Source: Streptomycetaceae bacterium (GTDB lineage: Bacteria > Actinomycetota > Actinomycetes > Streptomycetales > Streptomycetaceae). Taken from it: DNA of 24,000 bases. This document shows, piece after piece, positions 6,341 through 23,071 of the stretch; the stretch's first letter is position 1; each line of letters opens with the position of its first letter. The stretch is from contig JAFAUH010000302.1 in the NCBI GenBank assembly GCA_019243445.1, positions 1 to 24,000 on the forward strand, in the 5' to 3' direction. The notes beneath the pieces are model-generated. The model did no database searches. It worked only from the letters and a program-made list of their open reading frames with translations, and was not told the DNA's origin. A program made the translations under genes and the position numbers.

Positions 6341-8581
6341 TCACCGCAGGATGCGCTGATCGTACTGCCAGCCGGTGATGCCCTCGTTCCCCGCGGCGAT
6401 CAGCATCCCGTCCCGGGTGAGGGCCAGCGCTGAGACGTCGTGGTGGGGATAGATGGTGATGCGATTGCCCAACCCCGGCCGCAGCAGATGGACGACGCGA
6501 TCGGCCCATGCCACAGCCATCACGGGGCCCGTAGCCGTCTCGGTGAGGGCCAGTGCCTTGGGCACCGACTCGCGGCGCGTCAGCGGCCTCGGCAACGGGG
6601 CACGGTCGCAATCCCACAACCGAATGGTTCCGTCGGTGGCTGCGGCGACGACCATCGTCACGCCGTTCCCGACACGCAGACAGCACACACCGGTGAGCGG
6701 CGCATCCGCAAGCCGCTCGACCCTGCTGAACGGGGCCTGGCCGAGAGCAGATCGGTCGAGAGCAGACTGGCTGAAAGCAAACAGGTGGGCGTTGCCCGTC
6801 ATATCCCCCACCACCAGGAGTCCGGCCTGCGGATCGCTGCCCACGCAGGTGGCGTTCACCCGGTCCGCCGGATCGACCGCATTGAACGGCGCCAGGATGT
6901 CCGCAGTCTGCGGCTGCTCTGCGCCACCGACCAGGTGGAGTACGCCGTCGTCACCGAGTACGACAATTCCGCCGTCCGCGAGTGGGGAAATGCCAGTGGC
7001 ACCGTTGGCCGGGGTGTTCACAGCTCGTCCGGAGATGGTCCCGTCGGCAGCGTTGATGATGTGGAGCTGACCTATCGGATCAGCTGCGATTACCTGAGTG
7101 GGGTGTGGTGTTGACGACGTCCCCGGGCTCAATGCGCCGATCGCACCCGGCCAATGCGCATCCGTCCCGCCGTTGTTCGGTATGAGTGAGGTGTGACGTA
7201 GGAAGGACCAGCGTGCGACAGCTGAGGCCTTCTCTGCCATAGGTGCGAGGAGTTCAGCCAGTCGCGGTGCGCTGGACAATGCGACCGCATGCAGCACGGA
7301 GGCACGTTTCTCCGCGTCGGGCAGTCCGCGATCGAGGATGGGCGCGGCCGGGTACCAGGTTGACCGCAGCGTCGGCGGAGTCTTCACCTTCGGATCGTCG
7401 AGGGCTTGGGTGATGGCAGCGGGGGATCCGTGGATGAGAAAGCCCGGATCGCTCATCAGGTGACTCAGGGAACGAGCATCCGGTGCGTGTCCGATGATGT
7501 GATCCAGTACATAGCGTGGGGCGTGCTCCCAGTCGAGCTGGCCTCTCGTGCTTTTGGGCACCAGGTCGAGAAGTGATGCGAAGAGCACCTGTGGAGTCGA
7601 GTGTTCATCAATCGCCTCGCTCTCCCGCCGTGCAATTTGGATCAGCTGAGGGAGCGGCAGCTTGAATTCCTGTACCTGTGGGGCAAGTTGCGCAGCGGCG
7701 GCGTCCACGGCGGCCCTGGCCGCGGCCTCGGAATCGGACGGGTGCAGTCCAGCGTGCAGCAGCCGCCATGTGGCGATGCCCATCTCCCCACGTGCCCATG
7801 CCAATGTCCGCAACGCGCTTCGCGCAGCTGGTTCCAGGCGACTCCACCACGCCGCGCAGATACTTGTGCGCGTATCTGGGCGCGTATCTGGGCGCGCGAT
7901 GCCTTGATCACTGGTGAGCCCTGCTGCGAGCCGCCCCAGAACGGGATGCGGGAAGACCTCTGCCGCGGGGACGGTGGGGCTGCCTCCCGTCAAGCGCGTA
8001 TACCAGGCGGCGTACTCCTCCTCGTCGGTCATCGCTGGATCGTCGAGGTCGATCGTCCGTACGGGGAAGTCGAAGCCGCTGCTGGTGAGGTCGCGTACCT
8101 CCGCAATCACGCGGACCCACGGCAGCGCCAGAAGTGGTTCCAGCACTTCGGTCACCAACAGGGAGCCAGGCCATCGGCCTCGAGTGCTCACCTGGTGCAG
8201 ATCTGGTATCGCGATCAGCAACGGGCGTTTGTCAGCCGTGACATGGATGATCAGATCGGACACTGATGCTGGGCCGTAGCCCAGTTGAAATGACAGCTCC
8301 CATACCAGCGGCGCCAGCGAAGCACCGGCCGCAGGAACCAGTGCGTTGACCTGGTCCGCCGCGTGTCCGGTCGCATGTCCGGAGGTGTGTCCGGCCGCGT
8401 GTCCGGTCGCGCCGCATGCGAACCAGGCGATGAGATGGCTCTTCCCCATCCCTGCCGAACCACCGACCAGGCATACCCGTTCCGCATCGGTGTCCGCTGC
8501 CCACTCAAGCAGCGCCCAGCCCGCCGGGGCACGGCCTGCCTCCAGCGGTGGCCGGTCGTCGGCGGGCAACGCGTTGTTCAC
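6341..8581 (-). CDS. STAND-type P-loop NTPase with C-terminal WD40-like beta-propeller
   Basis: Walker A is VCLVGGSAGMGKSHL and a Walker-B-like strand is RPLLIAIPDLH. A long helical middle region follows. The C-terminal third has repeated strand blades (QLHIINAADGTISG, GIVVLGDDGVLHLVG, LLVVGDMTGNAHLF, MVVAAATDGTIRLWD, VMAVAWADRVVHLL, MLIAAGNEGITGWQY). GTG start with GGAGGAG upstream. Confidence 0.75.
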   Translation of the reverse strand: MNNALPADDRPPLEAGRAPAGWALLEWAADTDAERVCLVGGSAGMGKSHLIAWFACGATGHAAGHTSGHATGHAADQVNALVPAAGASLAPLVWELSFQLGYGPASVSDLIIHVTADKRPLLIAIPDLHQVSTRGRWPGSLLVTEVLEPLLALPWVRVIAEVRDLTSSGFDFPVRTIDLDDPAMTDEEEYAAWYTRLTGGSPTVPAAEVFPHPVLGRLAAGLTSDQGIARPDTRPDTRTSICAAWWSRLEPAARSALRTLAWARGEMGIATWRLLHAGLHPSDSEAAARAAVDAAAAQLAPQVQEFKLPLPQLIQIARRESEAIDEHSTPQVLFASLLDLVPKSTRGQLDWEHAPRYVLDHIIGHAPDARSLSHLMSDPGFLIHGSPAAITQALDDPKVKTPPTLRSTWYPAAPILDRGLPDAEKRASVLHAVALSSAPRLAELLAPMAEKASAVARWSFLRHTSLIPNNGGTDAHWPGAIGALSPGTSSTPHPTQVIAADPIGQLHIINAADGTISGRAVNTPANGATGISPLADGGIVVLGDDGVLHLVGGAEQPQTADILAPFNAVDPADRVNATCVGSDPQAGLLVVGDMTGNAHLFAFSQSALDRSALGQAPFSRVERLADAPLTGVCCLRVGNGVTMVVAAATDGTIRLWDCDRAPLPRPLTRRESVPKALALTETATGPVMAVAWADRVVHLLRPGLGNRITIYPHHDVSALALTRDGMLIAAGNEGITGWQYDQRILR

Positions 8582-8623
8582 GTCTTCTCCTCCGCGGTAG
8601 GGCGTGACGTCAGTAGCCGGACG

Positions 8624-9184
8624 TCAGTAGCCGTACAGAATGCGTTCCACAATCTGGTACCAGTAGGACTCGGGGTCGGCGAAGGCAGTCGAATCCGCAG
8701 CACGGAGTTCGACCACGAGGTTGTCCGTCGCCTTCTTACGGGTCTCCAGATTCTTCGCCTCGATATATTCTCGATCACGGAAGAACGCGGTAATGAACAG
8801 AGTGAACAGATCGACGCTGCTGTTGAGGAAACCTGGCGCTTCCTCTCCGTCAACCATCACCCTGACCTCACCGGTGCTACCGTCCAGGATCACGGCGTCG
8901 TCGCCGTAACAAAATCCCATGGCGACCCAACTGTCCGCGGTCCGAGGCAGATCATCGATCTCGTAGATATCAGGACGCTCCGAGCGAAGATCCGGTAGTC
9001 CGGAGGCCACCGTGTCCACGGTCTGATAGATGAAGTCGGATACATCCGGAACCCCGACTTCGGCAAGAAAGCGGGCTGTGGCCGTGTGAGTGACGGCGGG
9101 ATTCAGCAGTTCCGCAGGAACGGTGGCGACATGGGCAGGGCCGAATGCCGCTTCCAGCTCACTGCGCGAGATCGCGAAGCTCAT
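8624..9184 (-). CDS. SUKH-4-like immunity protein (stand-alone)
   Basis: 186 aa. It is clearly paralogous to the N-terminal roughly 180 aa of the next gene. Compare FLAEVGVPDV / LLVECGIPRQV, SWVAMGFCYGDDAVILDGSTGEVR / SWLCLGRDQGAQLCLDPSGKVR, NSSVDLFTLFITAF / NGSLDAFLESLIAL and PESYWYQIVERI / PDSWWSRVVEDI. Size, pattern and adjacency to toxin deaminases fit the SUKH-4 immunity family as I recall it. GAGGAG RBS 5 nt upstream of the ATG. Confidence 0.6.
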   Translation of the reverse strand: MSFAISRSELEAAFGPAHVATVPAELLNPAVTHTATARFLAEVGVPDVSDFIYQTVDTVASGLPDLRSERPDIYEIDDLPRTADSWVAMGFCYGDDAVILDGSTGEVRVMVDGEEAPGFLNSSVDLFTLFITAFFRDREYIEAKNLETRKKATDNLVVELRAADSTAFADPESYWYQIVERILYGY

Positions 9185-9256
9185 CGGACTCCTCGGTGGT
9201 GCGGTGCGCGGGGCTGTCGTGTGCGATCCTGTGCGGTCGTTGCGAGGGTGACGGGT

Positions 9257-10105
9257 TCATTTCACCGCGGCCTGCCGCAGGAGGGCGAGGAAGCTCGCTT
9301 CTCGGGACTGTGCAGTCTGCCCGTAACCAAAGGAATGGGTGAATTCTGCATGCGGGAATTCTCTTGCCATCCATACAGTGCAGTAGTGTCCGGGCATGAA
9401 ACAAGGTTCCAGCTCGGTGTGCACCTTCTTCACCTGAGCGGGAGTGACGCCGGCTTCCCGTAGACCGTTCCAGATCCGCTCTTCCGGATGCAGGCACATG
9501 CCGCCCGGTTCGCTCACGATCTGCTTCTTCCCTTCAGCGTCGGTGAACTCGAAGGCGGCAAAGGAGGCATGCGAGCTGGTGTGCCGGATGTCCTCGACCA
9601 CTCGCGACCACCAGGAGTCGGGCGACTGCACCGCCCCTTGTTCGATGACCGCGAGCCGCCGCAGCAGGGTACGGATGTGCGTTGCTCTTTCCGGTACGTT
9701 CCGGGTAGCACCGATCAGGGCGAGCGCTTCGTCCAACGCGATGAGCGATTCAAGGAAGGCGTCCAGGCTCCCGTTGACGAGCGCCCCGGGATCACCGGAC
9801 GCATCGAATTCGGCTCGCACCTTCCCTGACGGGTCCAGGCACAGTTGCGCTCCCTGGTCCCTCCCGAGGCAGAGCCAAGATGCCTTTCCGCCGGTGTCAT
9901 CCGTGTCCGCCGTCCCGTGATAGGCACCCAACCGGAGGGAGTCGCTCTCCGACGACAGAAAATAAGGACCGACCTGCCGAGGTATTCCACATTCGACAAG
10001 AAGAGGAATTCGTCCGGCATCCGGACCGATATTTCCCACCATGAATCGCCGAATACCGGACGAACCGAAGCGCGCCACGATTCTTGCTCGAAGGTCGTCA
10101 GACAT
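9257..10105 (-). CDS. SUKH-4-like domain fused to a C-terminal toxin-type (CDA-fold) deaminase domain
   Basis: The N-terminal 180 aa are homologous to the 8624-9184 product. The C-terminal roughly 90 aa carry zinc-deaminase motifs HPE (CLHPEERIW) and PCx6C (ELEPCFMPGHYCTVWM). Its tail REFPHAEFTHSFGYG parallels the upstream deaminase tail KYFPGTDVSHSFIYG. Confidence 0.65.
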   Translation of the reverse strand: MSDDLRARIVARFGSSGIRRFMVGNIGPDAGRIPLLVECGIPRQVGPYFLSSESDSLRLGAYHGTADTDDTGGKASWLCLGRDQGAQLCLDPSGKVRAEFDASGDPGALVNGSLDAFLESLIALDEALALIGATRNVPERATHIRTLLRRLAVIEQGAVQSPDSWWSRVVEDIRHTSSHASFAAFEFTDAEGKKQIVSEPGGMCLHPEERIWNGLREAGVTPAQVKKVHTELEPCFMPGHYCTVWMAREFPHAEFTHSFGYGQTAQSREASFLALLRQAAVK

Positions 10106-10143
10106 GCTTCATATCCTACATCCTCGCGGCACACCTATGGAGA

Positions 10144-10920
10144 TCACTTGAACAGGTCTTTCAGGTAGCTTGCATGAGCCTCGTTCCCCACCGTCTCATC
10201 CTCCTTCTCCGGGCCGTAGATGAAGGAGTGAGAAACATCTGTCCCCGGGAAATACTTCGCGAGCCACGCGGCACACTTCGGACTGCGCCGCTGACACGGG
10301 GCTCTTTCACTGTAGGCCGCAACGACATCACCGGTCAGATTGCCATTCTCCTTATTGGCCAGGAATGGCACTCCGGCGTACTGCTCGGAGTGCGAACCGT
10401 ACGACTTGCTCCGGCCTACCAGAATAAATTCGCCGTCTTTTCCTTTGTAGTGGAACGCGGCGTAATTATTCGCGCCTTCATCCCCCATGGCGCCCCGGGC
10501 CTGCTGGGTGGCCCTCGACAGCTCCGTCGTCCCTGGAGCAACTTCCTCGGAGTTCACCATCGGCCATTCCTTGCCGGGGGATTTGGGACCGAGGAGATAC
10601 TCTCCGGGTTTCTTTCCGAGGGTTTTGTTCTCGTCATCCAGGATATTACGGATCCCGGACGTGTCATGGAGTGCGACTTCGGTCAGTTCGTTTTCCCCGA
10701 CCTTCATGACCTTGCCCTCGTGGTCGACCATGTACACGGGGACTCTGTCCGCTATGTCTTCCTCGACCTTTTCGAAATGAGTGGCGGCATCGCGGGCCAT
10801 GGTGCCGATGCGGTCGTGGGCGGCGGCAAGCGCCCGGGGTATCTTCTCGCTGATGTGCCCGAGGATTTCGACGGTGGGTTTGACTATTTTCTCAACTATC
10901 TCCGCCATACCGTCTTTCAA
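10144..10920 (-). CDS. Toxin-type nucleic acid/nucleotide deaminase (CDA fold; SCP1.201-like or YwqJ-like clade unresolved), possibly the C-terminal half of a split polymorphic toxin
   Basis: HSE (GSHSEQYAG) and PCx6C (SERAPCQRRSPKCAAWL) are spaced 32 residues apart. The preceding strands AAFHYKGKDGEFILVGRS fit a deaminase core. The only start candidates are TTG at 10920, which overlaps the upstream stop by 4 nt, or ATG at 10908. The N-terminal 140 aa look like a linker rather than a domain. Confidence 0.65.
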   Translation of the reverse strand: MKDGMAEIVEKIVKPTVEILGHISEKIPRALAAAHDRIGTMARDAATHFEKVEEDIADRVPVYMVDHEGKVMKVGENELTEVALHDTSGIRNILDDENKTLGKKPGEYLLGPKSPGKEWPMVNSEEVAPGTTELSRATQQARGAMGDEGANNYAAFHYKGKDGEFILVGRSKSYGSHSEQYAGVPFLANKENGNLTGDVVAAYSERAPCQRRSPKCAAWLAKYFPGTDVSHSFIYGPEKEDETVGNEAHASYLKDLFK

Positions 10921-11642
10921 CCCCCCGTGGTGAAGGTCAGCGCTCCGACTTTATTGCTGAAATCTCGGCCCCCGTTGATGTTGGCATCGGCTTCACGCTT
11001 GATCATTTCTCCGTGGGTACGTATGGCCGCGGTATCGAGCTTGAGAGCGGGTACCTGACCTCCGATGCTCAGATGGGCGACCTCGGCGAAGAGCAGCCTC
11101 TGCACTGACTGGTCTATCCGCTCCATGATCGGTCCGATGGTGGAGTTCACCAGGGCGCCGACCACCTCGGATTCGAAGCGCTGCAGGATGGCGTTGATGA
11201 TACGATTCTGCGCCTCGATGAAAATGGGTTCCGCGGCCTCCGCCAGGCCCGCAGTGGCCACCGCGGCCACCTGATCGGCAGCGAACTCCGCTGCCGCTAT
11301 GCCGAGTTGGACGATAACCTCGCCCTTCATCCCCTCTACCCCGATGGCCGCCACATCAAGACCGTCAGCCAGCAGCCGGCACACCTCGATCAGATCTTTC
11401 ATATGTCCGGAAGACTGATCGGCCCACACCTGAGCCAGCGCGGTGTACGACTGTGCCGTGTAGGCCCGTTGCAACTCTCCGTTGACGATGCCGTGGGTGC
11501 GTCCGTGCGACTGCTCGCACTCTTCGGCATAGGAACGCAGGTGCTTGGCTGCCTCGCGAAGCTGGTCCTCGTCGATCTCTGGCCAGTTGAAGCCCAGTAT
11601 CCCCATGATCTCAACAAGCCAGTGCGGCAAGTTGATAGCCAC
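10917..11642 (-). CDS. WXG100/LXG-like helical N-terminal trafficking module of a T7SS-type polymorphic toxin (no toxin domain in this ORF)
   Basis: The N-terminus MAINLPHWLVEIMGILGFNWPEIDEDQLREAAKHLRSYAEE...ALAQVWADQSSG resembles the WP-x-x-DED-x-L helical hairpin found at the N-termini of actinobacterial secreted toxins (from memory). The remainder is Ala-rich helical. GTG start with GGGGGAGG 6 nt upstream. It ends ...FTTGG-stop on a G6 run. Confidence 0.55.
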   Translation of the reverse strand: MAINLPHWLVEIMGILGFNWPEIDEDQLREAAKHLRSYAEECEQSHGRTHGIVNGELQRAYTAQSYTALAQVWADQSSGHMKDLIEVCRLLADGLDVAAIGVEGMKGEVIVQLGIAAAEFAADQVAAVATAGLAEAAEPIFIEAQNRIINAILQRFESEVVGALVNSTIGPIMERIDQSVQRLLFAEVAHLSIGGQVPALKLDTAAIRTHGEMIKREADANINGGRDFSNKVGALTFTTGG

Positions 11643-12108
11643 GGCCGCCTCCCCCGGTTCAATGAACGCTCTACCCCATCACCACACATCCTATGATCTG
11701 CCCGTCAATCCTGCTGTCAACACGGTGAATTGATGACACGTGATGACGTGCTCGTGACGCCAACGTGATCCGTGCGTTCGCAGCATCGGGAAACCGCAGC
11801 AGAGACCAGCCACTGATCCGTCAGGCGATCACCTGCCCGACGTGGCAGGAGGGGCGGCCGCCGGTTCGGGTGTCAGATGCTGGTATGACCGAGGTGTTCA
11901 ACATGAGCGTGATGTCCCTGGGAAGACTCCCCGCGCGCGAGGCCGATCTGTGACGACACCACCATCCGCCGTTGATTCCGATCGTGTACCGAACAAGCCC
12001 AAGGCGCCCTGAAGTGACCAGGTCGCACGCCGTGCACGGTACGTTGGGCGCACGGCTGGGCATACGGGGGTCGTTGAGCATCGAAGTACGTAGGTAACGG
12101 GAGGGTCA

Positions 12109-13722
12109 GTGGACCAGACGCCGGAATGGGGCCGGAGTGATAGAGGTGGCGCCTGGAATCCGGGTGGGGACAGAAGCTTCGGCGCAGGCGCCGGGGTAGG
12201 TGGTCCTGGCAGGACCGGTGGTGATGCATGGGCCGGACAGGCCGACTACGGCGCGGGGTCGTCGGGTGGCGGCAGTTACGCCGGGCTCGCTGCTGAGGCG
12301 GACGCGCTCTCCGGCCGTCTGCCCGAGGGCTTTCAACTGCTGCGACGGGCCGGAAGGGGCCGGCACAGCAGCGTGCTGCTGTGCCGCGAGGACGCGACCG
12401 GGCAAGAGGTCGCGCTGAAAATACTCAACTTGACGGTGGAGGACGAGGGCCTGCGGCTGGCCACTCACTCCGAGCTGCTCTCCGCGGGGGCCGCGGCGAA
12501 ACACCCGTGCTCGGTGCTGGTCGAGGACGCCGGCTTTACGCCCGACAATCGACCATATCTCGTCGAGCAGTTCTGCCAAGGCGGAAATGCTCAGTCAAAG
12601 CTGAATAATTCGGGCACCTTCTCGGTGGACGAGGTCATCATCATCGGGATACGGCTGGCGCTGTCGCTGAGTTCGGCGCACCGCCGCGGCGTCCTGCACT
12701 TGGACGTACGACCCGCGAACGTGCTCTTCGACGGGGCCGGGGACGCACTGCTCGCCGATCACGGCATCGCCCGTATCATCCAGCGGTCCGCACCGCAGCT
12801 CGGGGCCGTTTTCGACCCGATGTACTCCGCGCGCGAGATGTTCGGCTGGGAGAAGCCGGGGCCGTCCGCCGATATCTACGGCCTCGGGGCGACGCTCTAT
12901 GCGCTGCTCAACGGCCTTCCCGCGTATGCCGAGGCGGGCAGCACCAGTTGGTCGGCACTCTACAACGAGGTGCTGCGTGGCGAATTCCCACCGCCGAACC
13001 GGCACGATGTGCCACCGCAGCTGTTCGACCTCATCAGCCGCATGATGTCGGTGAACCCGGAGGGCCGCCCTCCGCTCACCGAAGTGCACCGGGTGCTGCG
13101 GATGATGATGCCTGCCGGGTATGGCGTCCGGGTACCGGCGCTCGACCCGGAGCCGGAGCCCGAGCCGATGCTGCCAGGCTGGGATCCGGCCGAAGACATC
13201 ACGCCGGAGGAGCAGGCGGAAGCCGAACGGATAGGCGCTGAGGCCGAGGCGGAGGCGCAGCGGCGTCGCCGCATGTGGATCGCTTCGGGCGCGGTCCTGG
13301 TCCTTTTCGTTGCGGGGGCCACGGCGATCACCGTGTACCACGAGAAGAACAAGGCGAAGGAGAAGGCGTCCGCCAGCCCCGCGCTGCCCAAGGGGCCGGT
13401 GCCCGCGAGCGAACAGGCTGAGTTCATGCCGCAGGACGTGATGGTGACAAAAGTCAACGGGACCGTGCAAGTGGCGTGGAAGGCCCCGAAGAACATGAAA
13501 TCGGTGGTTTCCTACGCAGTGCAGGTGGCTCTCCCTGCCGCCAATGGTCAAAAGAGGGGCGGTCAGTTGCAGACGACGACACTGGCCAATCCCGAGGTGA
13601 TCTTCAGCGCGCCCGAGGACGTACAGTCCGACGACTGCTACGTCGCCGCGTCGGTGGTGAAGGCTGCCAATGGCGAGCTGCAGTATGCGGCTGCGCGACC
13701 TGTGTGCAATACGGCGGGATGA
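12109..13722 (+). CDS. Membrane-anchored Ser/Thr protein kinase-like protein (Hanks fold, single TM, extracytoplasmic beta-rich domain)
   Basis: Gly-rich disordered N-terminus. Kinase core has EVALKIL (Lys), HRRGVLHLDVRPANVLF (catalytic loop, HLD instead of HRD), LLADHGIA (DHG instead of DFG) and SAREMF...SADIYGLGATLYALLNG. TM segment MWIASGAVLVLFVAGATAITVY. C-terminal roughly 130 aa with FN3-like strand pattern (VTKVNGTVQVAWKAP...SYAVQV). GTG start after GGGAGGG. Confidence 0.8.
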   Translation: MDQTPEWGRSDRGGAWNPGGDRSFGAGAGVGGPGRTGGDAWAGQADYGAGSSGGGSYAGLAAEADALSGRLPEGFQLLRRAGRGRHSSVLLCREDATGQEVALKILNLTVEDEGLRLATHSELLSAGAAAKHPCSVLVEDAGFTPDNRPYLVEQFCQGGNAQSKLNNSGTFSVDEVIIIGIRLALSLSSAHRRGVLHLDVRPANVLFDGAGDALLADHGIARIIQRSAPQLGAVFDPMYSAREMFGWEKPGPSADIYGLGATLYALLNGLPAYAEAGSTSWSALYNEVLRGEFPPPNRHDVPPQLFDLISRMMSVNPEGRPPLTEVHRVLRMMMPAGYGVRVPALDPEPEPEPMLPGWDPAEDITPEEQAEAERIGAEAEAEAQRRRRMWIASGAVLVLFVAGATAITVYHEKNKAKEKASASPALPKGPVPASEQAEFMPQDVMVTKVNGTVQVAWKAPKNMKSVVSYAVQVALPAANGQKRGGQLQTTTLANPEVIFSAPEDVQSDDCYVAASVVKAANGELQYAAARPVCNTAG

Positions 13723-13798: not shown

Positions 13799-14095
13799 TC
13801 AGTGGCCAATGCCGTGCGCCAGGCTCTCGTCCGCCTGACGGAAGGCGTCGGCGGCCTGGTGCAGGAACTTCGCCATGCCGGTGAGGCCGTCGATGGTCTG
13901 CGTCGCGCCCTTGTTGAACTCGGTGTACGACTGCTCGAACGCCTTCGAGGAGCGGTCGGTCACGTAACCGTCGTTCACCAACTGGTTGACGAAGCTCTGG
14001 AGCTGGTGCAGCTTGTCGGTGATCTCCTGCTGCCCGCTGGTCAGCTTGTTCGCCGCGTCCTGCATCTGGTCATAAGTGACGTTTACGTTGGCCAT
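13799..14095 (-). CDS. WXG100-family (EsxA-like) small helical secretion substrate, Trp-less variant
   Basis: 98 aa with a predicted helix-turn-helix layout. Start MANVNVTYDQMQDAANKLTSGQQEI and mid-turn ...NDGYVTDRSSKAFEQSYTEF align by eye to EsxA ...ANWEGQAFSRFEEQF. It is divergently adjacent to an EssC/EccC-like ATPase. Confidence 0.7.
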   Translation of the reverse strand: MANVNVTYDQMQDAANKLTSGQQEITDKLHQLQSFVNQLVNDGYVTDRSSKAFEQSYTEFNKGATQTIDGLTGMAKFLHQAADAFRQADESLAHGIGH

Positions 14096-14160
14096 ATCGG
14101 CAACCCCTCATTTCACGCCTCAGGGCCTGTCCCCCGTGGCTCCTGGCTACTTCGTTTCTA

Positions 14161-14181
14161 GCAGGTTGCATGACAACCTGC
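14161..14181. promoter_or_regulatory. Perfect 8-5-8 inverted repeat in the divergent WXG100/essC-like promoter region (candidate operator)
   Basis: gcaggttg-catga-caacctgc, located 66 bp from the WXG100 start and 291 bp upstream of the ATPase start. Confidence 0.25.
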
Positions 14182-14471
14182 CCGGCTTTGCCAGTTGTTC
14201 AGCTTACGGGCAGGGACGCGGGAGTGCACCCCCCGGTTCCCGGCAGACGTCCGCGAACCAACTACCGCCCCCACCATACAGTCAGCACATATTCACGTTT
14301 TCTGCACGTTCCCCCATATCTCCCCCCACCTTCGCCTGGGCGGCTGTCGTACCCGTCAGGCATCATGGTTCCCATCACAAGCCGAGCGGCTTCGCGCAGA
14401 GAACAGGAACATGCGCAGGCGCCGTGCAGGCACCGCGCATTGCACCGACAACATCGCCCAGGGGGACGGCC

Positions 14472-17400
14472 GTGGAACTGCAGCTCAGCGTCATTGACCC
14501 AGTCCGTGCGGACCGTTCGGACATGCTGGTCGACGCCGATCCCGCAGCACCGGTCGGCGCGCTCGCTGTCGAGATCGCCCGGCAGCTCGGGATGCCCGAC
14601 GACGGGCAGGGCCCGCCCAGGCTGCATATCAACGGCTTCATAGTCGACCCCGAGGTCAGCCTCGACGCCTCGCCCGTGCGTGACGGCGCGCTGGTCTCGA
14701 TAGCCGCGCCCGCCCCGCTTCAGGCACCCGACGCGCAAGGCACCGTCGAGGTACGGGTCGTGGGCGGTCCGGATGCCGGCGGTGTGTACCGGCTGGGGCC
14801 CGGCATGGCCGTCGTCGGCAGCGGGACGGAGGCGTGGATCCGGCTCGCCGACGCGCAGTTGCCGCAGTCCGCGGTCGAGGTGGACGTCGCGATTGACGGC
14901 AATGTGACCGTGCGCCCTTCGGCAGGCGCCTCCGTCACCCTCGACGGCGAGCCGCTCACCTCCGCCAAGCCGTGGCGGCGGCGTAGCGTCATCAGCGTCG
15001 GCCAGTCGCTGATCGAGCTGCAGCATCCATCCTTCCCCGACGCCGCGTTGAAGCCTTCCGAAGACGGCACAGGGCTGGATTACAACCGGCCGCCGCGTAT
15101 CACCCCGCCGCCGCGACCGACGAAGTTCAACCTGCCGGCGAAACCCAAGCAGGGCGAGGCACGTCCGCTGCCCTGGCTCATGGCGGCGCTGCCGCTGGTC
15201 GGCTCCCTCGTGATGTTCATGGCGATGCGGCCGCATAATCCGATGTATCTGTCCATGGCGCTGCTCAGTCCCCTCACCATGGTGGGCAACTACCTCAACG
15301 ACCGTAAGCGCGGCAAGAAGTCGTTCCGCCACACCCTCGCCGACTACGAGAAGCAAAAGGACTCCATTGATCGGCAGGCGCGCAAGGCGGTCGCCGCCGA
15401 GACGGGCGCGGCGCGCGAGCTGTGCCCCGACCCGGCGCAGGTACTGATCACCGCGACCGGCCCTGGTATGCGACTGTGGGAGCGTCGGCGCGCCGACGCC
15501 GACTACGGGCTGCTGCGGGTCGGCACGGGCACCCTGCCGTCGGAGGTCGAAGTCTCCGACCCCGCACAGGAGGAGCACCGGCGTATCTCGCACCGCAAAC
15601 TGCTGGACGCGCCGGTGACAGTGCCGATGACCGTCCACAGCGTGCTGGGCATTGCGGGACGCGGTGAGGTGCCGCGCATGATCGGCCGCTGGCTGATAGC
15701 CCAGGCCGCCGTGTTGCACTCTCCGGCGGATTTGTCCGTCTGCGTGCTCACCGACCCGAGCGGACGGCACAGTTGGGAATGGGTGCGCTGGCTGCCGCAT
15801 GCCCGGGCCCGGGAGGGCCAGTCGGCCTTGGCTTTGATCGGTACGGACGCCGACAGTGTGGCGCGTCGCATCAGTGAGCTGCTCGCCCAGTTGACTGCCC
15901 GTCAGGATGCGGCGCGTGAGGCGGGTATGCAGGCCAACCAGGTCTGGAGCGGCCCCACTACTCTCGTTGTCCTCGACGGATCGCGACGGCTGCGCGCGCT
16001 GCCGGGCCTGACGCAGATCCTGCGCGACGGCCCGAAGGTCGGCATCCACCTGATCTGCCTCGACGCCGACCGCCGGCTGCTGCCTGAGGAGTGCAAGGGG
16101 GTGGTCGAGGAGGATTACTACGGGCTGCTGTCGGTCTCGATCGCCGGTCAGGAGCCGGTGACCCAGGTGCGCCCCGACTGTGTCTCGCCCGAGTGGTGTG
16201 AGCAGGTCGCCCGCTCTATCGCGCCGATACGTGACATCAGTGGTGACGACGGCGCGGCGCTGCCCGACGCCTGCCGTCTGCTGGACGTCATCGATCTGGA
16301 GCCGCCGACGACAGCCGGGATCACGGCACGCTGGTCGCTGAGCGGGCGCAGCACAAGCGCCGTGGTCGGTGCCTCCTTCGACGGGCCGTTCGCCATCGAC
16401 TTGGTGCGGGACGGGCCGCACGGCCTGGTCGCCGGCACCACTGGTTCCGGTAAGTCGGAGCTGCTGCAGACCATTGTCGCCTCGCTCGCCGTAGCCAACC
16501 GGCCGGACGCGATGACATTCGTCCTTGTCGACTACAAGGGCGGTTCGGCGTTCAAGGACTGTGTGAAACTGCCGCACACCGTCGGCATGGTCACCGACCT
16601 CGACACCCACTTGGTGGAGCGAGCGCTGGAGTCGCTCGGCGCCGAACTGCGCCGCCGTGAGCACATCCTCGCCGCGGCCGGTACGAAGGACCTCGAGGAT
16701 TACATCATTGCGATGCGCACCAACTCGTCGCTCGCACCGATGCCGCGCTTGCTCATCGTGATCGACGAGTTCGCGTCCATGGCGCGGGAACTGCCGGACT
16801 TCGTCACAGGTCTGGTCAATATCGCGCAGCGAGGCCGTTCGCTGGGCATTCATCTGATCCTGGCCACGCAGCGGCCCTCCGGTGTCGTCTCGCCCGAGAT
16901 CCGCGCCAACACCAATCTGCGGATCGCATTGCGCGTGACGGACGCCGCCGAGTCGTCCGACGTCATCGACGCGCCCGACGCCGGGCACATCGCCAAGTCC
17001 ACGCCGGGGCGGGCGTATGTGCGCCTTGGCGCCTCCTCGCTCCTGCCGTTCCAGTCCGGCCGGGTCGGCGGGCGGCGGCCGGGCCAGGTCGCGTCGAAGG
17101 CTCCTGCGCCGTTCACGGTCCCGGTCGGGTGGGAGGCACTGGGCAAGCCGGCGCCCGAGCGCCCGCAGGGGCCGAAGTCCAACGACGACGATCTGCTCAC
17201 CGACCTCGCGGTCCTGGTCGATGCGATCATCGGTGCCAATGAGCAGTTGGGGCTACCGCCGCAGCACAGCCCGTGGCTGCCCGCGCTCCCGGACTCCACC
17301 ACGCTGGACGATCTGGAGCCGCCGCGCTATCTGTCGCGGGACGGTTTGCTGCCGGCCCCGTTCGCCGTCGAGGACCTGCCATCGCAGCAGGCGCGCCGCA

Positions 17401-18875
17401 CCACCTCGATCGAGCTGCCGACCTTCGGTCACCTGATCATCGCGGGTTCGCCGCGTACCGGCCGCTCACAGGCGCTGCGTACGATCGCGGGTTCACTCGC
17501 CCGCGCCAACTCCCCTGCGGATCTGCATCTTTACGGTCTCGACTGCGGCAATGGCGCGCTGCTGGCCCTTACCCAGTTGCCGCACTGCGGGGCCGTGGTC
17601 CGCGCCAATGAGCCGGATCGCGCCGAGCGGCTCATCAACAACCTGTCGGCCGAGGTACAGCGGCGCATGGCGCGGCTCGGCGAGCGCGGCTTCACCGACA
17701 TCAACGAGCAGCGTCTCGGAGTTCCGGAAGGCGAGCGGCTGCCGCACATCATGCTGCTGCTCGACCGCTGGGAGGGCTTCCTGCCCTCGCTCGGCGAGAT
17801 GAACTCCGGCGCGCTCACCGATGCCGTCTTCCAGCTGATGCGTGAGGGTGCCTCGGTCGGCATCCACGTGATCGTCGCCGGTGACCGCACGGTGCTCGTC
17901 GGCCGGATCTCAACGCTGACCGAGAACAAGCTGGCATTCCAACTGAGCGACTCATCCGACTTCAGCGTGATCGGTCTCAACCCGCGCAAGGTACCGGAGA
18001 AGATGGCGCCCGGCCGTGCCTTCCGCCAGGGCGCCGTCGAGACACAGGTCGCACTGCTCACCGAGGATCCCAGCGGCCAGGCACAGTCGGCGGCGATCGG
18101 CACGATCGCCCAGTGGGCAAAGGGCCGCTGGGACAACGTGCCGCGTTCACGTCTTCCGTTCCGAGTGGACGTGCTGCCGGGCCGGATCAGCTTCGAGGAG
18201 GCGTGGGAGCTGCGCGACGTCAGCGACCAGGCGGTCAACAGCCCCCTGTGGGCGCTGACCGCGGTCGGCGGCGACCAGCTCACCGCCATCGGCCCGGATC
18301 TGCGTCAGGGCAGTCCGGCATTTGTCATCGCGGGTCCGCCGCGCTCCGGGCGCTCCACCGCGCTGCTGACGATGACGCGCTCGCTGATGTCGGCCGGCAC
18401 CCAGGTGATCCTGGCTGCGCCACGCCGCCAATCGCCGCTGCGCCGCCTTAAGCACGCGCCGGGCGTGATCGGATACTTCACGGAGGAGGAGATCTCCGGG
18501 GCCGAGATGGAGGAGGCGCTGAACCGGGTGCAGGGATCGGCAGCGATCATCGTCGACGACGCGGAGCTGCTGCGCCAGTGCGATGCGAGCGAGCTGCTGA
18601 CCCAGGTGGTGCGCCGCTCGACGGGTAAGGACATCGCCTTGGTGATCGCTGGCGACGCGGACGGCGTGTGCGGCGGTTTCTCCGGCTGGCAGGTGGAGAT
18701 GAAGAAGGCCCGGCGCGGTCTGCTGCTCTCGCCGCAGAATCTGTCGGATGCCGATCTGATCGGTGTGCGGCTGCAGCGTAGTGCGATCGGCCAGGCGATT
18801 CAGCCCGGCCGCGGGCTGCTGCACCTTGGCGACGGCGAGGCTCGTACCGTCCAGGTGCCACTCACAGCGCTGTAG
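14472..18875 (+). CDS. EssC/EccC-like type VII secretion ATPase: ubiquitin-like (YukD-like) domain, FHA, 2 TM, three FtsK/SpoIIIE P-loop domains
   Basis: N-terminal roughly 85 aa are VELQLSVIDPVR...ALAVEIARQLGM...INGFIVDPEVSLDASPVRDGALVSI (beta-grasp pattern). FHA-like segment is VEVRVVGGPDAGGVYRLGPGMAVVGSGTEAWIRLAD...VTLDGEPL...ISVGQSLIEL. Two TM segments are PLPWLMAALPLVGSLVMFMAM and MYLSMALLSPLTMVGNYL. Walker A motifs are GTTGSGKSELL, GSPRTGRSQAL and GPPRSGRSTAL, with Walker B motifs LLIVIDEFA, IMLLLDRWE and AIIVDDAE. The ORF is open from 14076, but that part overlaps the WXG100 gene. GTG at 14472 follows GGGGGA. An alternative GTG lies 16 codons upstream. Confidence 0.85.
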   Translation: MELQLSVIDPVRADRSDMLVDADPAAPVGALAVEIARQLGMPDDGQGPPRLHINGFIVDPEVSLDASPVRDGALVSIAAPAPLQAPDAQGTVEVRVVGGPDAGGVYRLGPGMAVVGSGTEAWIRLADAQLPQSAVEVDVAIDGNVTVRPSAGASVTLDGEPLTSAKPWRRRSVISVGQSLIELQHPSFPDAALKPSEDGTGLDYNRPPRITPPPRPTKFNLPAKPKQGEARPLPWLMAALPLVGSLVMFMAMRPHNPMYLSMALLSPLTMVGNYLNDRKRGKKSFRHTLADYEKQKDSIDRQARKAVAAETGAARELCPDPAQVLITATGPGMRLWERRRADADYGLLRVGTGTLPSEVEVSDPAQEEHRRISHRKLLDAPVTVPMTVHSVLGIAGRGEVPRMIGRWLIAQAAVLHSPADLSVCVLTDPSGRHSWEWVRWLPHARAREGQSALALIGTDADSVARRISELLAQLTARQDAAREAGMQANQVWSGPTTLVVLDGSRRLRALPGLTQILRDGPKVGIHLICLDADRRLLPEECKGVVEEDYYGLLSVSIAGQEPVTQVRPDCVSPEWCEQVARSIAPIRDISGDDGAALPDACRLLDVIDLEPPTTAGITARWSLSGRSTSAVVGASFDGPFAIDLVRDGPHGLVAGTTGSGKSELLQTIVASLAVANRPDAMTFVLVDYKGGSAFKDCVKLPHTVGMVTDLDTHLVERALESLGAELRRREHILAAAGTKDLEDYIIAMRTNSSLAPMPRLLIVIDEFASMARELPDFVTGLVNIAQRGRSLGIHLILATQRPSGVVSPEIRANTNLRIALRVTDAAESSDVIDAPDAGHIAKSTPGRAYVRLGASSLLPFQSGRVGGRRPGQVASKAPAPFTVPVGWEALGKPAPERPQGPKSNDDDLLTDLAVLVDAIIGANEQLGLPPQHSPWLPALPDSTTLDDLEPPRYLSRDGLLPAPFAVEDLPSQQARRTTSIELPTFGHLIIAGSPRTGRSQALRTIAGSLARANSPADLHLYGLDCGNGALLALTQLPHCGAVVRANEPDRAERLINNLSAEVQRRMARLGERGFTDINEQRLGVPEGERLPHIMLLLDRWEGFLPSLGEMNSGALTDAVFQLMREGASVGIHVIVAGDRTVLVGRISTLTENKLAFQLSDSSDFSVIGLNPRKVPEKMAPGRAFRQGAVETQVALLTEDPSGQAQSAAIGTIAQWAKGRWDNVPRSRLPFRVDVLPGRISFEEAWELRDVSDQAVNSPLWALTAVGGDQLTAIGPDLRQGSPAFVIAGPPRSGRSTALLTMTRSLMSAGTQVILAAPRRQSPLRRLKHAPGVIGYFTEEEISGAEMEEALNRVQGSAAIIVDDAELLRQCDASELLTQVVRRSTGKDIALVIAGDADGVCGGFSGWQVEMKKARRGLLLSPQNLSDADLIGVRLQRSAIGQAIQPGRGLLHLGDGEARTVQVPLTAL

Positions 18876-18961: not shown

Positions 18962-19858
<897 letters not shown>

Positions 19859-20143
19859 CTAGACCCAGCACTTCTGGATCTCGTGCCGCCCCCGGACGGT
19901 GCCGACCGCGTCGTGCGTCGCGGGACGACGGTGACACCGACGGCGTCGAGACGACACGAGAGCACGGGAGGATCTTTGAACCCTTCCACACCGAGATCCC
20001 CCGTGCTACGCTCGTTCGCAAGTTGCAGTTTGGTTTCCCTTGCAGTACAAAGCCTGCGGAGCATGTGACGCCGCAGGCTTTTGTTTTTCAGACTTCATCG
20101 CAGGTTCTGGAGCTAGGGCAACCCTTGGCCCAAGGAGGGCTTT

Positions 20144-20347
20144 ATGGCTACCGGAACCGTTAAGTGGTTCAACGCTGAAAAGGGCTTCGGCTTCATCGCC
20201 CAGGACGGCGGCGGACCCGACGTCTTCGTTCACTACTCCGCGATCAACGCCTCTGGCTTCCGCTCCCTCGAGGAGAACCAGTCCGTGACCTTCGACGTCA
20301 CCCAGGGCCCGAAGGGTCCGCAGGCGGAGAACGTCAGCCCGGCGTAA
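20144..20347 (+). CDS. Cold-shock protein (CspA family)
   Basis: [34 protein letters not shown] contains the RNP1 (KGFGFI) and RNP2 (VFVHY) motifs. AAGGAGG RBS. Confidence 0.95.
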
Positions 20348-20385
20348 TTGCGTCATCAATAAAAGTACCCAAGAGAAGTATCCAA

Positions 20386-20421
20386 GGAGCCCCGCGCATG
20401 CGCGGGGCTCCTGCCTTTTTT
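20386..20421 (+). terminator. Intrinsic terminator of the cold-shock gene
   Basis: ggagccccgcgc/gcgcggggctcc palindrome (20386-20411) followed by tgcctttttt (T-run 20416-20421). Confidence 0.85.
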
Positions 20422-20636
20422 GGGCGCCAGACCCAGTCCGGGCGGGCGCCCGACCCAAGCCACGATGACCGACTTTCCGACCAATTCCGATCAACTCCTC
20501 CAAGAGCATGAACAGCTGCACCTGTCCGAGCGATTGAACGTGTCCCACGGCCCGGCTGAGGGCATTCCATGACGTTGCCCGGGCATGCTGGGCAAACCCC
20601 TTCGACACAGGCTTCAATCCAGGAACTGAGGTAACC

Positions 20637-21227
20637 ATGCGCCGCCTAGCCGCAGCAGCGTCCGCAGTCGCCGCGCTTTTCTGCGTCTCCGCCATCCCCG
20701 CCCAGGCCGCACAGGCCGAGCACGTCCCACCGTTCGGCCTCGGCAAGGTCCTCGCCCGCCACGGGGGCATGATCAGATCAGGGCCGGGTGTGAACTACGC
20801 AGTCACCGGACGTCTGCGTAACGGCCAGGTCGTTCCGCTGCTCTGCAGGGCCACCGGGTCGACCTTGCGCGACCACCGTCTGTGGTACAAGCTGAACGAC
20901 CGTCCCGAGATGTGGGCCAACTCCGTCCTCATCGGCCGTATCGGCAAATCTCCGGTCTGGTGCGCGCGCCCCGGAGTCTCGGTCCAGCCGGGTCATCACC
21001 ACAAGAAGCACCACGGCATGAAGCAGCAGGCCCAGCACCTGCTCGCACCGCAGGCCCCGCAGACCTCGCAAATGCCGCAGACCACTGTGAAGTCACAGAA
21101 CACTGAGAACCTGCGGACCAACCAGCGGGAGCTTCAGAAACTGCAGCAGGAACTGATCAACGAGCAAATCCAGCAGCGCCCGATGAGCGCGCCCGGCATG
21201 CACCTCCAAAGCGGCGGCAAGCACTGA
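20637..21227 (+). CDS. Secreted protein with SH3b-like domain and His/Gln-rich tail
   Basis: Signal peptide MRRLAAAASAVAALFCVSAIPAQAAQA. GGMIRSGPGVNYAVTGRLRNGQVVPLLC...LWYKL resembles bacterial SH3 domains. The C-terminus is low complexity (HHHKKHH, Q-rich). Confidence 0.65.
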   Translation: MRRLAAAASAVAALFCVSAIPAQAAQAEHVPPFGLGKVLARHGGMIRSGPGVNYAVTGRLRNGQVVPLLCRATGSTLRDHRLWYKLNDRPEMWANSVLIGRIGKSPVWCARPGVSVQPGHHHKKHHGMKQQAQHLLAPQAPQTSQMPQTTVKSQNTENLRTNQRELQKLQQELINEQIQQRPMSAPGMHLQSGGKH

Positions 21228-21243
21228 CTTCGCGTCACCTTCC

Positions 21244-21283
21244 GTTGAAGGGGCGCCCGGCATCGGCCGGGCGCCCCTTCAAC
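21244..21283. terminator. Bidirectional hairpin terminator
   Basis: Perfect 18-bp inverted repeat gttgaaggggcgcccggc / gccgggcgccccttcaac with a 4-nt loop, between the convergent stops at 21227 (+) and 21344 (-). Confidence 0.8.
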
Positions 21284-21343
21284 GCAATGATGCGTTTCGA
21301 CACAATGATGCGATGCCGCATCACGGCTGATTCCTCCAGCGAA

Positions 21344-21658
21344 TCAGCCGTGTGCGCCACGGGCGGCGTCGTCCGCCTCGTCCTCGACACTCGCCTGATT
21401 GACGAAGGCCTGCCGGGTGCGCTCAACGCGCTGTGAGACCTGCACGGACGCCTCGTCACGGGCGCCACGCAGCAGGACATAGCTGAGCGGAGCGGAGAGG
21501 ACGAGTGCGAGCAACATCACCCACAGGAGATTGGACTTGCCGAGTCCGGCGGGGAGGACCCGCAGGTAGACGAGGCCCCAGATGGCGAGGAAGCACGCGG
21601 CGAAAAGTCCCGCGCGCATCGCGGTGTATCGGAGCATGGGGCTCGGCTTCCAGCTCAC
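21344..21658 (-). CDS. Small two-TM membrane protein (DUF4229-like)
   Basis: MLRYTAMRAGLFAACFLAIWGLVYL and LLWVMLLALVLSAPLSYVLL helices, then an acidic tail. Its position next to mqnE matches Streptomyces synteny as I recall it. Confidence 0.65.
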   Translation of the reverse strand: MSWKPSPMLRYTAMRAGLFAACFLAIWGLVYLRVLPAGLGKSNLLWVMLLALVLSAPLSYVLLRGARDEASVQVSQRVERTRQAFVNQASVEDEADDAARGAHG

Positions 21659-21834
21659 GGCAGTTCCACTCTTTCGTTCCGGTTCGATATCCGCAGGTCA
21701 GGTATACAGGTATACCTCTCCAGTGAAGCATGGAAAGCCAAGGGACGGCCCGCAGGGTCTCCGACAGGGGCGGGGTCCCCCAGGCAGTTCGTATGCCAGA
21801 CGTATGTGCCAGACCTATGTATCAGACACATGCG

Positions 21835-22998
21835 TCACATGCGCATCAGCTGCGGCAACTCCCGGCGCTCCGGGTCCGAGCCCGGGTACTCGCGGATGAT
21901 CTCGTAGCGCGTGTTGCGTTCGGCCGGGCGGAAGCCGGCGTCCCGGATCAGCTCGAGGATGTCCTCACGCGTGAGCTTGTTCGGCGTACCGAAGTCGTCC
22001 GCGTCATGCGTGATCTTGTACTCGACGACCGAGCCATCCATGTCATCCGCACCATAGTTGAGCGCGAGCTGCGCCGTGGTAAGGCCGTGCATGACCCAGA
22101 AGACCTTCACATGCGGCACATTGTCGAAGAGCAGCCGCGAGACCGCGAAGGTCTTCAGCGCCTCGGCGCCCGAGGCCATCGTCGTCCGCGCCTGCAGTCG
22201 GTTGCGGATCTTGCCGTCCTTCATGTCGACGAAGTCGTGCTGATAGCGCAGCGGAATGAAAACCTGGAAGCCACCTGTCTCATCCTGCAGTTCACGCAGC
22301 CGCAGCACATGGTCGACGCGATGGCGTGGCTCCTCAATGTGCCCGTAAAGCATCGTCGAGGGGGTCTTGAGGCCCTTGGCATGCGCCAGCCGGTGGATAC
22401 GCGACCAGTCCTCCCAGTGGGTGGCGTGGTCAACGATGTGCTGCCGCACATCCCAGTCGAAGATCTCCGCGCCGCCGCCAGTGAGCGACTCGAGGCCGGC
22501 GTCGATGAGTTCGTCGAGGATGTCGGAGGCCGACAGGCCGGAGATGGTCTCGAAGTGGTGGATCTCGGTGGCGGTGAATGCCTTCAGCGAGACGTTCGGC
22601 AGCGCCTCCTTCAGCGCCTTGAGCGAGCGCGGGTAATAGCGCCATGGCAACGTCGGATGAAGGCCGTTGACGATGTGCAGCTCAGTGAGGTGCTCGCCCT
22701 CCATCGCCTTGGCGAGGCGAACGGCCTCCTCGATGCGCATTGTGTACGCGTCCTTCTCGCCGGGCTTGCGCTGAAACGAGCAGTACGCACAGGAAGCGGT
22801 GCACACATTCGTCATGTTCAGGTGGCGGTTGACGTTGAAGTGGACGACGTCGCCGTTCTTCTGAGTACGCACGTGATGGGCGAGGCCGCCCAGCCAGGCG
22901 AGATCGTCGGACTCGTAGAGGGCCATCCCGTCCTCACGGGAGAGCCGCTCGCCTGCGTAGAGCTTCTCCTCCAGCTCCCGCTTGAGCCCAGCGTCCAT
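21835..22998 (-). CDS. mqnE: Aminodeoxyfutalosine synthase (radical SAM, futalosine pathway)
   Basis: NMTNVCTASCAYCSFQRKPGEKDAYT radical-SAM motif, HIVNGLHP, and TMLYGHIE blocks. ATG at 22998 is preceded by GGAGG-CGGC and gives 387 aa. The ORF is open to 23025. Confidence 0.85.
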   Translation of the reverse strand: MDAGLKRELEEKLYAGERLSREDGMALYESDDLAWLGGLAHHVRTQKNGDVVHFNVNRHLNMTNVCTASCAYCSFQRKPGEKDAYTMRIEEAVRLAKAMEGEHLTELHIVNGLHPTLPWRYYPRSLKALKEALPNVSLKAFTATEIHHFETISGLSASDILDELIDAGLESLTGGGAEIFDWDVRQHIVDHATHWEDWSRIHRLAHAKGLKTPSTMLYGHIEEPRHRVDHVLRLRELQDETGGFQVFIPLRYQHDFVDMKDGKIRNRLQARTTMASGAEALKTFAVSRLLFDNVPHVKVFWVMHGLTTAQLALNYGADDMDGSVVEYKITHDADDFGTPNKLTREDILELIRDAGFRPAERNTRYEIIREYPGSDPERRELPQLMRM

Positions 22999-23071
22999 GC
23001 CGCCTCCTTCGTTCGCACTGCCCAACCGAGGTTACGCCCCGACTCTGACACTCTGCCGGTCAGCCCGTCGG

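Follow-up and report, generated by a model that had tools for sequence, protein, structure and literature searches.

We analyzed a 24,000-nucleotide stretch of contig JAFAUH010000302.1 from a Streptomycetaceae bacterium (the window in what follows), which carries a gene for a membrane ATPase next to genes for a WXG100 protein and a kinase-like membrane protein. An earlier note, made from the sequence without database searches, had read the ATPase as a Firmicute-style EssC motor with an added ubiquitin-like (Ubl) module, perhaps part of a reduced or alternative type VII secretion system (T7SS). Our analysis places it in an actinobacterial family that matches none of the published T7SS subtypes, and we propose that this family probably drives a T7SS variant of its own. 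The ATPase gene, its parts and its two nearest neighbors are as follows.

14472–18875, plus strand: Ubl-FHA-2TM-ATPase gene (TM, transmembrane helix), EssC/EccC-type T7SS motor, 1467 amino acids (aa)
14472–14711, plus strand: predicted ubiquitin-like (beta-grasp, YukD/EsaB-like) domain, residues 1–80, from structure prediction, Foldseek and weak YukD Pfam matches
14742–15029, plus strand: single FHA-fold domain, residues 91–186, without the GR / SxxH / NG phosphothreonine-binding motifs
15165–15299, plus strand: transmembrane hairpin, residues ~232–276, from hydropathy; matched by alignment to the TM regions of EccC3 and YukB
16434–16775, plus strand: ATPase D1 core; Walker A (GTTGSGKS) and Walker B (VIDEFA) are both intact
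17445–17468, plus strand: D2 P-loop, GSPRTGRS, Arg for the Walker A Lys
18333–18356, plus strand: D3 P-loop, GPPRSGRS, Arg for the Walker A Lys
12109–13722, plus strand: membrane-anchored Hanks-type kinase-like protein, 537 aa, Pfam Pkinase 111.8 bits
13799–14095, minus strand: WXG100 gene, 98 aa, divergent from the ATPase gene; Pfam WXG100 E = 4.7e-18, TIGR03930 52.8 bits (cut-off 44.85)

The ATPase gene starts with the GTG at 14472, inside a longer open reading frame (ORF; 14076–18875). This start is backed by the N-termini of homologues from many genera, which share the equivalent first residue and the pattern M/V-x-L-x-L-[ST]-V, and an independent gene call on a public ENA contig gives an identical 1467-aa product. 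From N- to C-terminus, the protein is laid out as a ubiquitin-like beta-grasp domain, one FHA fold, a transmembrane hairpin and a multi-domain ATPase of the EssC/EccC type.

Structures of residues 1–92 and 88–200 were predicted separately with AlphaFold2 (AF2), using a 52-sequence alignment for each. The first segment, with a predicted local distance difference test score (pLDDT) of 90.2, has a strand-strand-helix-strand order in the model, and its leading Foldseek matches in the PDB are all ubiquitin, SUMO, NEDD8 or bacterial Ubls, and EccD5 is represented at ranks 18 and 27 by its ubiquitin-like domain. A general Pfam scan of the window protein gave no match on residues 1–90. The Pfam YukD model (PF08817) scores the protein at 13.9 bits (E = 0.095), below its 27-bit threshold, and makes sub-threshold matches to 5 of 21 family N-termini (best E = 0.005). 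The second segment (pLDDT 91.0) matches the FHA domains of CT664, OdhI/GarA, FhaA and YscD with Foldseek TM-scores of 0.7–0.8, and the FHA-clan Pfam model Yop-YscD_cpl covers residues 95–186 below threshold (E = 1.4e-5). Both N-terminal folds named in the earlier note are thus borne out. In these models the FHA count is one, and the ubiquitin-like domain is predicted to occupy the place of FHA1 in EssC; we rejected the reading of residues 1–90 as a degenerate FHA1. The EssC plan that the note assigned to the rest of the protein holds for the FHA, the transmembrane hairpin and the tandem ATPase domains, but not for the number of FHA domains, which is one rather than the tandem pair of EssC.

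The FHA domain of the window protein reads VGSG...LPQSAVEV...RPSAGASVTLDG, with GS rather than GR, a loop that lacks histidine, and no NG. The same GR/SxxH/NG motifs are missing from the FHA domain in 85 of 86 related loci. Distant members with an identical Ubl-FHA-ATPase layout retain them as GR...SRxH...STNG (Pfam FHA matches P0264), so the motif loss is secondary within the family.

Beyond the FHA domain, TM1 (233–253) is clear by hydropathy, and the weaker TM2 (~258–276) lies at the position homologous to EssC/EccC. Pfam FtsK_SpoIIIE matches the ATPase body with E = 1.8e-57, at residues 636–803 within D1. The GRS that D2 and D3 have in place of GK[ST] is found in the window protein and in the family consensus alike, and D1 looks, from these motifs, like the sole catalytic ATPase domain.

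The protein scores 578.7 bits with the NCBIfam EssC model (TIGR03928, cut-off 778.4), 417.9 bits with EccCa (TIGR03924, cut-off 509.15) and 315.6 bits with EccCb (TIGR03925, cut-off 346.55). It reaches none of these cut-offs and does not count as an equivalog of EssC or of EccC; a true EccC fragment of S. cyaneogriseus, run as a positive control, scored 575.9 bits against the same EccCb cut-off of 346.55. The FtsK and TraB equivalogs tested (NF007615 / NF041214) gave 63.6 bits (cut-off 1566) and 38.2 bits (cut-off 800), again short of the cut-offs. Because the EssC and EccC scores far exceed those of FtsK and TraB, the protein is a T7SS-type ATPase rather than a DNA translocase, as the note had maintained. 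In the PDB it matches T. curvata EccC best (299.9 bits), followed by B. subtilis YukB (242.3 bits), whose alignment begins at query residue 140, inside the FHA domain.

The source annotation, "cell division protein FtsK", and the Pfam FtsK_SpoIIIE domain would nonetheless suit a translocase of the FtsK/SpoIIIE/TraB kind that acts on DNA in chromosome segregation, sporulation or conjugation. We rejected this role, which we consider exceedingly improbable: FtsK and TraB scores lie far under their cut-offs, the FtsK alignment is confined to profile positions 999–1221 of 1355 and leaves the DNA-binding part of the model unmatched, the three tandem ATPase domains and D0 are those of EssC/EccC, and a WXG100 gene and effector cassettes lie adjacent.

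A membrane FtsK/SpoIIIE-type ATPase with tandem NTPase domains beside a WXG100 gene is a T7SS in the broad sense, and both are present here. The WXG100 protein of the window, read from its sequence, has the literal W of the WxG turn replaced (NDG). The second neighbor has a cytoplasmic kinase domain, one transmembrane helix (389–409) and a beta-rich extracytoplasmic tail, with NEK1 and PknB as its best PDB matches; the catalytic Lys, the HxD Asp, the Asn and the DFG Asp are present, in HLD and DHG variants, which would make it a Hanks-type kinase. These are the two neighbors that the note had described, and its report of missing ESX partners also stands, since Pfam and curated-family scans of the 24-kb window found no EccB, EccD, EccE or mycosin. 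The EssA, EssB/YukC and EsaA Pfam families have no match in the window or in seven related neighborhoods.

Distribution and conserved neighborhood

Full-length homologues, 54–95% identical and all annotated FtsK/SpoIIIE, occur in Streptomyces (including S. coelicolor and S. lividans), Streptantibioticus, Wenjunlia, Yinghuangia, Embleya, Actinacidiphila, Sporichthya and Pseudonocardiales. The 235-residue N-terminal module by itself has 750 matches at E <= 1e-3 and 226 at E <= 1e-10, counted as representatives of 50%-identity clusters; the Ubl-FHA module is invariably N-terminal, and the complete proteins span 1390–1650 aa. One match to the module comes from a Bifidobacteriaceae metagenome-assembled genome (MAG). 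When one genome per species was scanned with a 5-sequence alignment, a relative was found encoded in 490 genomes, the best of them in Streptomyces humicola (89% over the first 300 residues).

The neighborhood is conserved along with the ATPase. Of 86 related loci searched with tblastn, 66 have a WXG100 gene, 61 a kinase and 50 MqnA; the WXG100 gene is usually divergent, about 300 bp upstream of the ATPase. In S. lividans and S. coelicolor, the order is WXG100, ATPase, kinase, MqnA, which matches the arrangement beside mqnA that the note had given for S. coelicolor. The T7-like genes of the window interrupt a futalosine menaquinone cluster (4140–6318 and 18962–23025) comprising a UbiE-type methyltransferase, two MqnC/E-type radical SAM enzymes, MqnA and a UbiX-type flavoprotein, and this synteny is maintained across Streptomycetaceae.

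Effector-like cassettes adjoin the ATPase in S. coelicolor and S. lividans, Sporichthya, Pseudonocardiaceae and a MAG. Each opens with a ~100-aa WXG100/EspC-like protein, and the next gene encodes a 400–490-aa protein that begins with a T7SS_signal or WXG100_2 domain or, in Pseudonocardiaceae, a 1426-aa RHS protein with a T7SS_signal domain. Two transmembrane helices are present in some of the larger proteins, which small membrane proteins then follow.

This setting also bears on whether the locus might serve signaling or development. Kinase, FHA and Ubl are signaling-type modules that could form a membrane hub around the (pseudo)kinase, with WXG100 export affecting development as reported for Streptomyces ESX, and the place beside housekeeping menaquinone genes is deeply conserved (the 50 of 86 loci above). 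The sco4508 upstream region was, moreover, among eight cloned in a study of promoters of constantly expressed genes (PMC4625935). However, in many genomes the gene is flanked by cassettes that resemble polymorphic toxins and include immunity-like membrane proteins, and the ATPase body is that of a full translocase. We consider a signaling or developmental device quite unlikely.

The neighboring kinases are of two kinds. The S. coelicolor kind (29 loci) lies downstream on the opposite strand and is canonical throughout (GxGxxG, VAVK, HRDVKPSN, DFG); the window kind (~33 loci) lies upstream on the same strand and has HLDVRPAN and DHG. Full-length orthologues of the window kinase in the S. albus clade (L024–L038) have VAVR for VAVK, GHA or GHG for DFG and, in some cases, HLG or HLE, residues by which we class them as predicted pseudokinases. 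The alphaC segment RLAxHSELLxAGAAAxHPC is nearly invariant in all window-type kinases, these pseudokinases included.

Two further observations concern individual loci. A 5.4-Mb MAG contig (contig_1540; L003, L088) carries two Ubl-FHA ATPase paralogues on one chromosome. The first has mqnA and a kinase gene beside it; the second, located elsewhere, is accompanied by a WXG100 gene but no kinase, and Tad/T2SS-type genes lie nearby. In L006 (974–6889) and L003 (1935–6486), bpMoxR/DUF58/transglutaminase genes or large fn3-repeat proteins lie beside the T7-like genes; these neighbors resemble the MoxR-vWA-kinase-FHA sensing modules that a 2026 preprint links to Esx (PMC13622651).

Relation to published T7SS subtypes

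It was only in 2024 that the diversity of T7SSs other than ESX and Ess was surveyed: Garrett, Higginson and Palmer defined T7SSc–j, with one extra actinobacterial type, T7SSd (PMC11217815). T7SSd consists of an FHA-ATPase (TsdC), a membrane kinase (TsdD), one WXG100 protein (TsdA), TsdH and a large TsdI, and it is unique among the subtypes in having no ubiquitin-like component (PMC11217815). Table S1 of the same work ties the kinase component to conserved phosphothreonine motifs, and it gives the conservation of GR/SxxH/NG as 100/98/90% in TsdC and 0/0/21% in EssC (PMC11217815). FHA-ATPases with kinase partners were thus already known from Actinomycetota, so the FHA domain, which is present as the earlier note described, is no surprise there in itself.

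We compared the window family with ten representative ATPases, one per subtype, rebuilt from N-terminus to D2 from the supplementary alignment of that study (noisy text from optical character recognition, OCR), and with T. curvata EccC rebuilt from a PDB alignment. BLASTP scores against TsjC, TscC, TsgC, EssC, TsfC, TshC, TsiC, TseC and TsdC fall from 363 to 238 bits. TsdC is the lowest of these (238 bits, 25.8% identity) and the second-lowest of the ten subtype references, above EccC5 only. Over 947 aligned columns, identity is 25–29% to the nine non-EccC subtype ATPases and highest, at 31.7%, to T. curvata EccC. In a neighbor-joining tree (300 bootstraps scored as splits, arbitrary root), the family is monophyletic (100%), a clade of EssC and TscC–TsjC that includes the T7SSd ATPase TsdC excludes it (100%), and the family together with that clade is split from the two EccCs (100%). 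In 0 of 300 bootstraps does the family join TsdC, EssC, TscC, TsjC or T. curvata EccC. From these sequence comparisons, the family appears to form a separate actinobacterial lineage, with no match among the ten published subtypes. Placement relative to EccC and EssC was the test that the note had set: the tree puts the family apart from both, and the family scores keep it away from DNA translocases. "Firmicute-style" is therefore apt for the architecture and not for the ancestry, given the family's own clade outside EssC and TscC–TsjC.

The closest likeness in components is to the T7SSb core (EssC/YukB, EsaB/YukD, EssB/YukC, EsxA). Both have an FHA-bearing ATPase with two transmembrane helices and D0-D1-D2-D3, a motif-less FHA, a ubiquitin-like module, a single WXG100 gene, a protein that spans the membrane once and has its (pseudo)kinase domain in the cytoplasm, and polymorphic toxins with helical N-terminal targeting domains plus small helper proteins. 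In contrast to T7SSb, the window Ubl is fused to the ATPase in place of FHA1, leaving one FHA where EssC has two, and the partner is a Hanks-type kinase, not an EssB/YukC family member, with catalytic residues kept in the window clade. The ATPase is 25% identical to EssC. We rejected T7SSb membership on the missed EssC cut-off, the FHA number, the position outside the EssC clade and a locus that lacks EssA, EssB and EsaA.

Membership in T7SSd would make the ATPase a TsdC orthologue and its neighbor a TsdD kinase, with regulation through kinase-dependent phosphothreonine binding to the FHA. The phylum is the same (T7SSd is known from Olsenella and Bifidobacterium), as is the small set of FHA-ATPase, membrane Ser/Thr kinase and single WXG100 protein (PMC11217815), and some distant family members retain GR/SxxH/NG. 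Yet TsdC has the lowest similarity of the non-EccC references and joins the family in none of the bootstraps; the motifs so well kept in TsdC are lost in the window and in 85 of the 86 related loci; a Ubl is fused here where T7SSd has none; and there is no large signal-peptide Ig-like TsdI-type gene in the window or in most related loci. No TsdH was seen, a protein too small and featureless for a rigorous search. We rejected T7SSd membership, which strikes us as very improbable.

T7SSa, or ESX, belongs to the same phylum and also brings a ubiquitin-like domain into contact with the ATPase, in that case on EccD. EccC, however, lacks FHA and Ubl domains, and ESX has a WXG100 gene pair and the partners EccB, EccD, EccE and MycP, which are missing from the window. 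With both EccC cut-offs missed and no eccB, eccD, eccE or mycP in the 24 kb, T7SSa membership was rejected as well.

The deaminase toxin island and the window surroundings

Upstream of the kinase gene lies a toxin module, which the earlier note had proposed as the cargo of the alternative T7SS.

6178–11972: window-specific 5.8-kb island with the toxin module, delimited by a blastn comparison with S. humicola (L008); its GC content is the lowest of the window
6341–8581, minus strand: NTPase/WD40 protein
8624–9184, minus strand: SUKH-4 immunity protein
9257–10105, minus strand: SUKH-4 + deaminase fusion
10144–11642, minus strand: WXG100_2-linker-XOO_2897 deaminase toxin gene, split in two ORFs
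10144–10920, minus strand: deaminase ORF
10917–11642, minus strand: WXG100_2 ORF

The two toxin ORFs are out of frame and meet at a G6 run (10921–10926 on the minus strand; junction 10917–10930), where one added G would fuse them into a 499-aa protein. Toxin homologues of 566–586 aa have the WXG100_2 and XOO_2897 deaminase domains on one chain. Possible sources of the split are an error in the assembly, a genuine frameshift and slippage. The SUKH-4 + deaminase fusion contains a second intact deaminase domain (HxE...PC..C) and no export domain. PADLOC gave no meaningful match for the NTPase/WD40 protein, and we looked for a small WXG-like helper gene upstream of the toxin without finding a credible ORF in 11643–12108.

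A known type of polymorphic toxin combines an XOO_2897 deaminase with SUKH-4 immunity and export through a T7SS (PMC3239186), and the window toxin is a plausible T7 substrate. Its tie to the neighboring ATPase is weak. The island is missing from the closest genome, S. humicola, by blastn, and the toxin module from all 86 related loci. The same four genes (toxin, SUKH-4, SUKH-4 + deaminase fusion, NTPase/WD40) make up a conserved mobile module and occur in L089 (10001–15040) and L091 (10001–15111): the Kitasatospora copy is away from any T7SS gene, and the S. cyaneogriseus copy (L089, CP010849.1) sits within a canonical EccC/mycosin ESX locus. The position of the toxin beside the ATPase is thus no evidence of a conserved partnership, so that of the note's proposal the alternative T7SS-like system stands while its link to the toxin is weak, given a window-specific island, a split gene and a module found in ESX elsewhere. 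The ESX locus of L089 (1–21640) encodes EccC, three subtilisin-type proteins, of which one was checked and scored above the mycosin cut-off, and several WXG100, T7SS_signal, EspC-like and DUF6317 proteins.

Canonical ESX loci are carried by Streptomyces species, and the window ATPase might be an accessory or alternative motor that plugs into an ESX complex encoded elsewhere and alters its substrate choice or regulation. No other membrane components are conserved beside the ATPase, and the presence of the window toxin module within the S. cyaneogriseus ESX locus means that two systems may share effector types. The canonical ESX, though, already has its own EccC; the Ubl contact that EccD gives in T7SSa is already built into the window protein; and in 66 of the 86 loci a dedicated WXG100 gene accompanies the ATPase. 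An accessory motor seems to us unlikely, if less so than the other alternatives.

The remaining genes of the window are listed below.

681–1628, plus strand: NlpC/P60
1748–2437, minus strand: DUF4232
2514–4100, plus strand: 528-aa ORF with no Pfam or PADLOC match; DNA conserved in S. humicola (87% identity)
4140–4841, minus strand: UbiE-type methyltransferase
4927–6318, minus strand: MqnC/E-type radical SAM enzyme
18962–19849, minus strand: MqnA (Pfam VitK2_biosynth, E = 2.4e-76), a syntenic neighbor that gives context and lies outside the system
Past 19849: cold-shock protein, SH3, DUF4229, second radical SAM enzyme, AsnC, flavoprotein

A proposed cis-fused secretion core

In B. subtilis, cryo-EM shows YukD bound to the FHA and DUF domains and the D1 hairpin of YukB, which fixes the FHA domains and lets the YukC pseudokinase, as a dimer, use its alphaC helix to engage the FHA2 tip (PMC12637312). 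The window locus has the same three modules, a Ubl, a motif-less FHA and a membrane (pseudo)kinase, on two polypeptides, and we therefore propose a YukB-YukD-YukC core fused in cis. That the locus encodes a distinct T7SS variant whose core copies this arrangement, with the YukD-like domain joined to the motor, is the reading we judge probable; it draws on the domain folds, the motif states, the breadth of the family, its conserved neighborhood and its phylogenetic separation from the published subtypes. The contacts between proteins, self-sufficiency and any export we infer by analogy.

In the proposed mechanism, the conserved core would be the ATPase and one WXG100 protein, joined in most Streptomycetaceae by the single-pass membrane kinase-like protein. 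The cis-fused Ubl would pack on the FHA and the DUF/D0 domain and hold the FHA in place. The FHA, without a phosphothreonine pocket, would then dock on the N-lobe/alphaC surface of the membrane (pseudo)kinase, and phosphorylation would not be needed. D1 would power export, because it is the sole domain with a canonical P-loop, and D2 and D3, with their GRS P-loops, would bind substrate or regulate. Substrates would be the WXG100 protein and larger effectors with WXG100_2 or T7SS_signal N-terminal domains.

Several points weigh against this proposal. No candidate equivalents of EssA, EsaA, EccB, EccD or TsdI are conserved near the ATPase, and to our knowledge a T7SS of two or three proteins is unprecedented. 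The kinase is not universal, being missing beside the ATPase in Pseudonocardiaceae and other loci, and the S. coelicolor-type neighbor is a different, fully canonical kinase, about 30% identical. All five catalytic residues are present in the window kinase, so control by phosphorylation may apply. Canonical phosphothreonine-binding FHA domains are kept in distant family members. The tree is distance-based, with OCR-derived references that end after D2. In the literature outside subscription journals, SCO4507–4513 drew one unrelated mention only, and a search of the same scope on T7SSd, PF21725 and Streptomyces T7SS toxins found no paper on this locus.

A bolder version, which we hold more tentatively, is that the family is an eleventh, self-sufficient subtype outside T7SSa–j, of ancient origin and passed on vertically in Streptomycetaceae and other Actinomycetota, S. 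coelicolor among them, with its whole core on two polypeptides (the Ubl-FHA-ATPase and the (pseudo)kinase), a natural YukD-YukB fusion. Because the ATPase branches between EccC and all EssC-like ATPases in the neighbor-joining tree, the family could preserve a state intermediate between the actinobacterial and firmicute systems.

Hundreds of Streptomyces-type genomes encode this fused Ubl-motor family under the name "cell division protein FtsK", and the genetically tractable S. coelicolor has an orthologue. A natural Ubl-FHA fusion would be an independent argument for the role recently proposed for YukD in assembly of the T7SSb core, and the active-kinase and pseudokinase orthologues amount to a natural experiment on the need for catalysis. 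If self-sufficient, the system would be the smallest T7SS known. If the proposal is true, antibiotic-producing soil bacteria would be likely to export their polymorphic toxins through this system.

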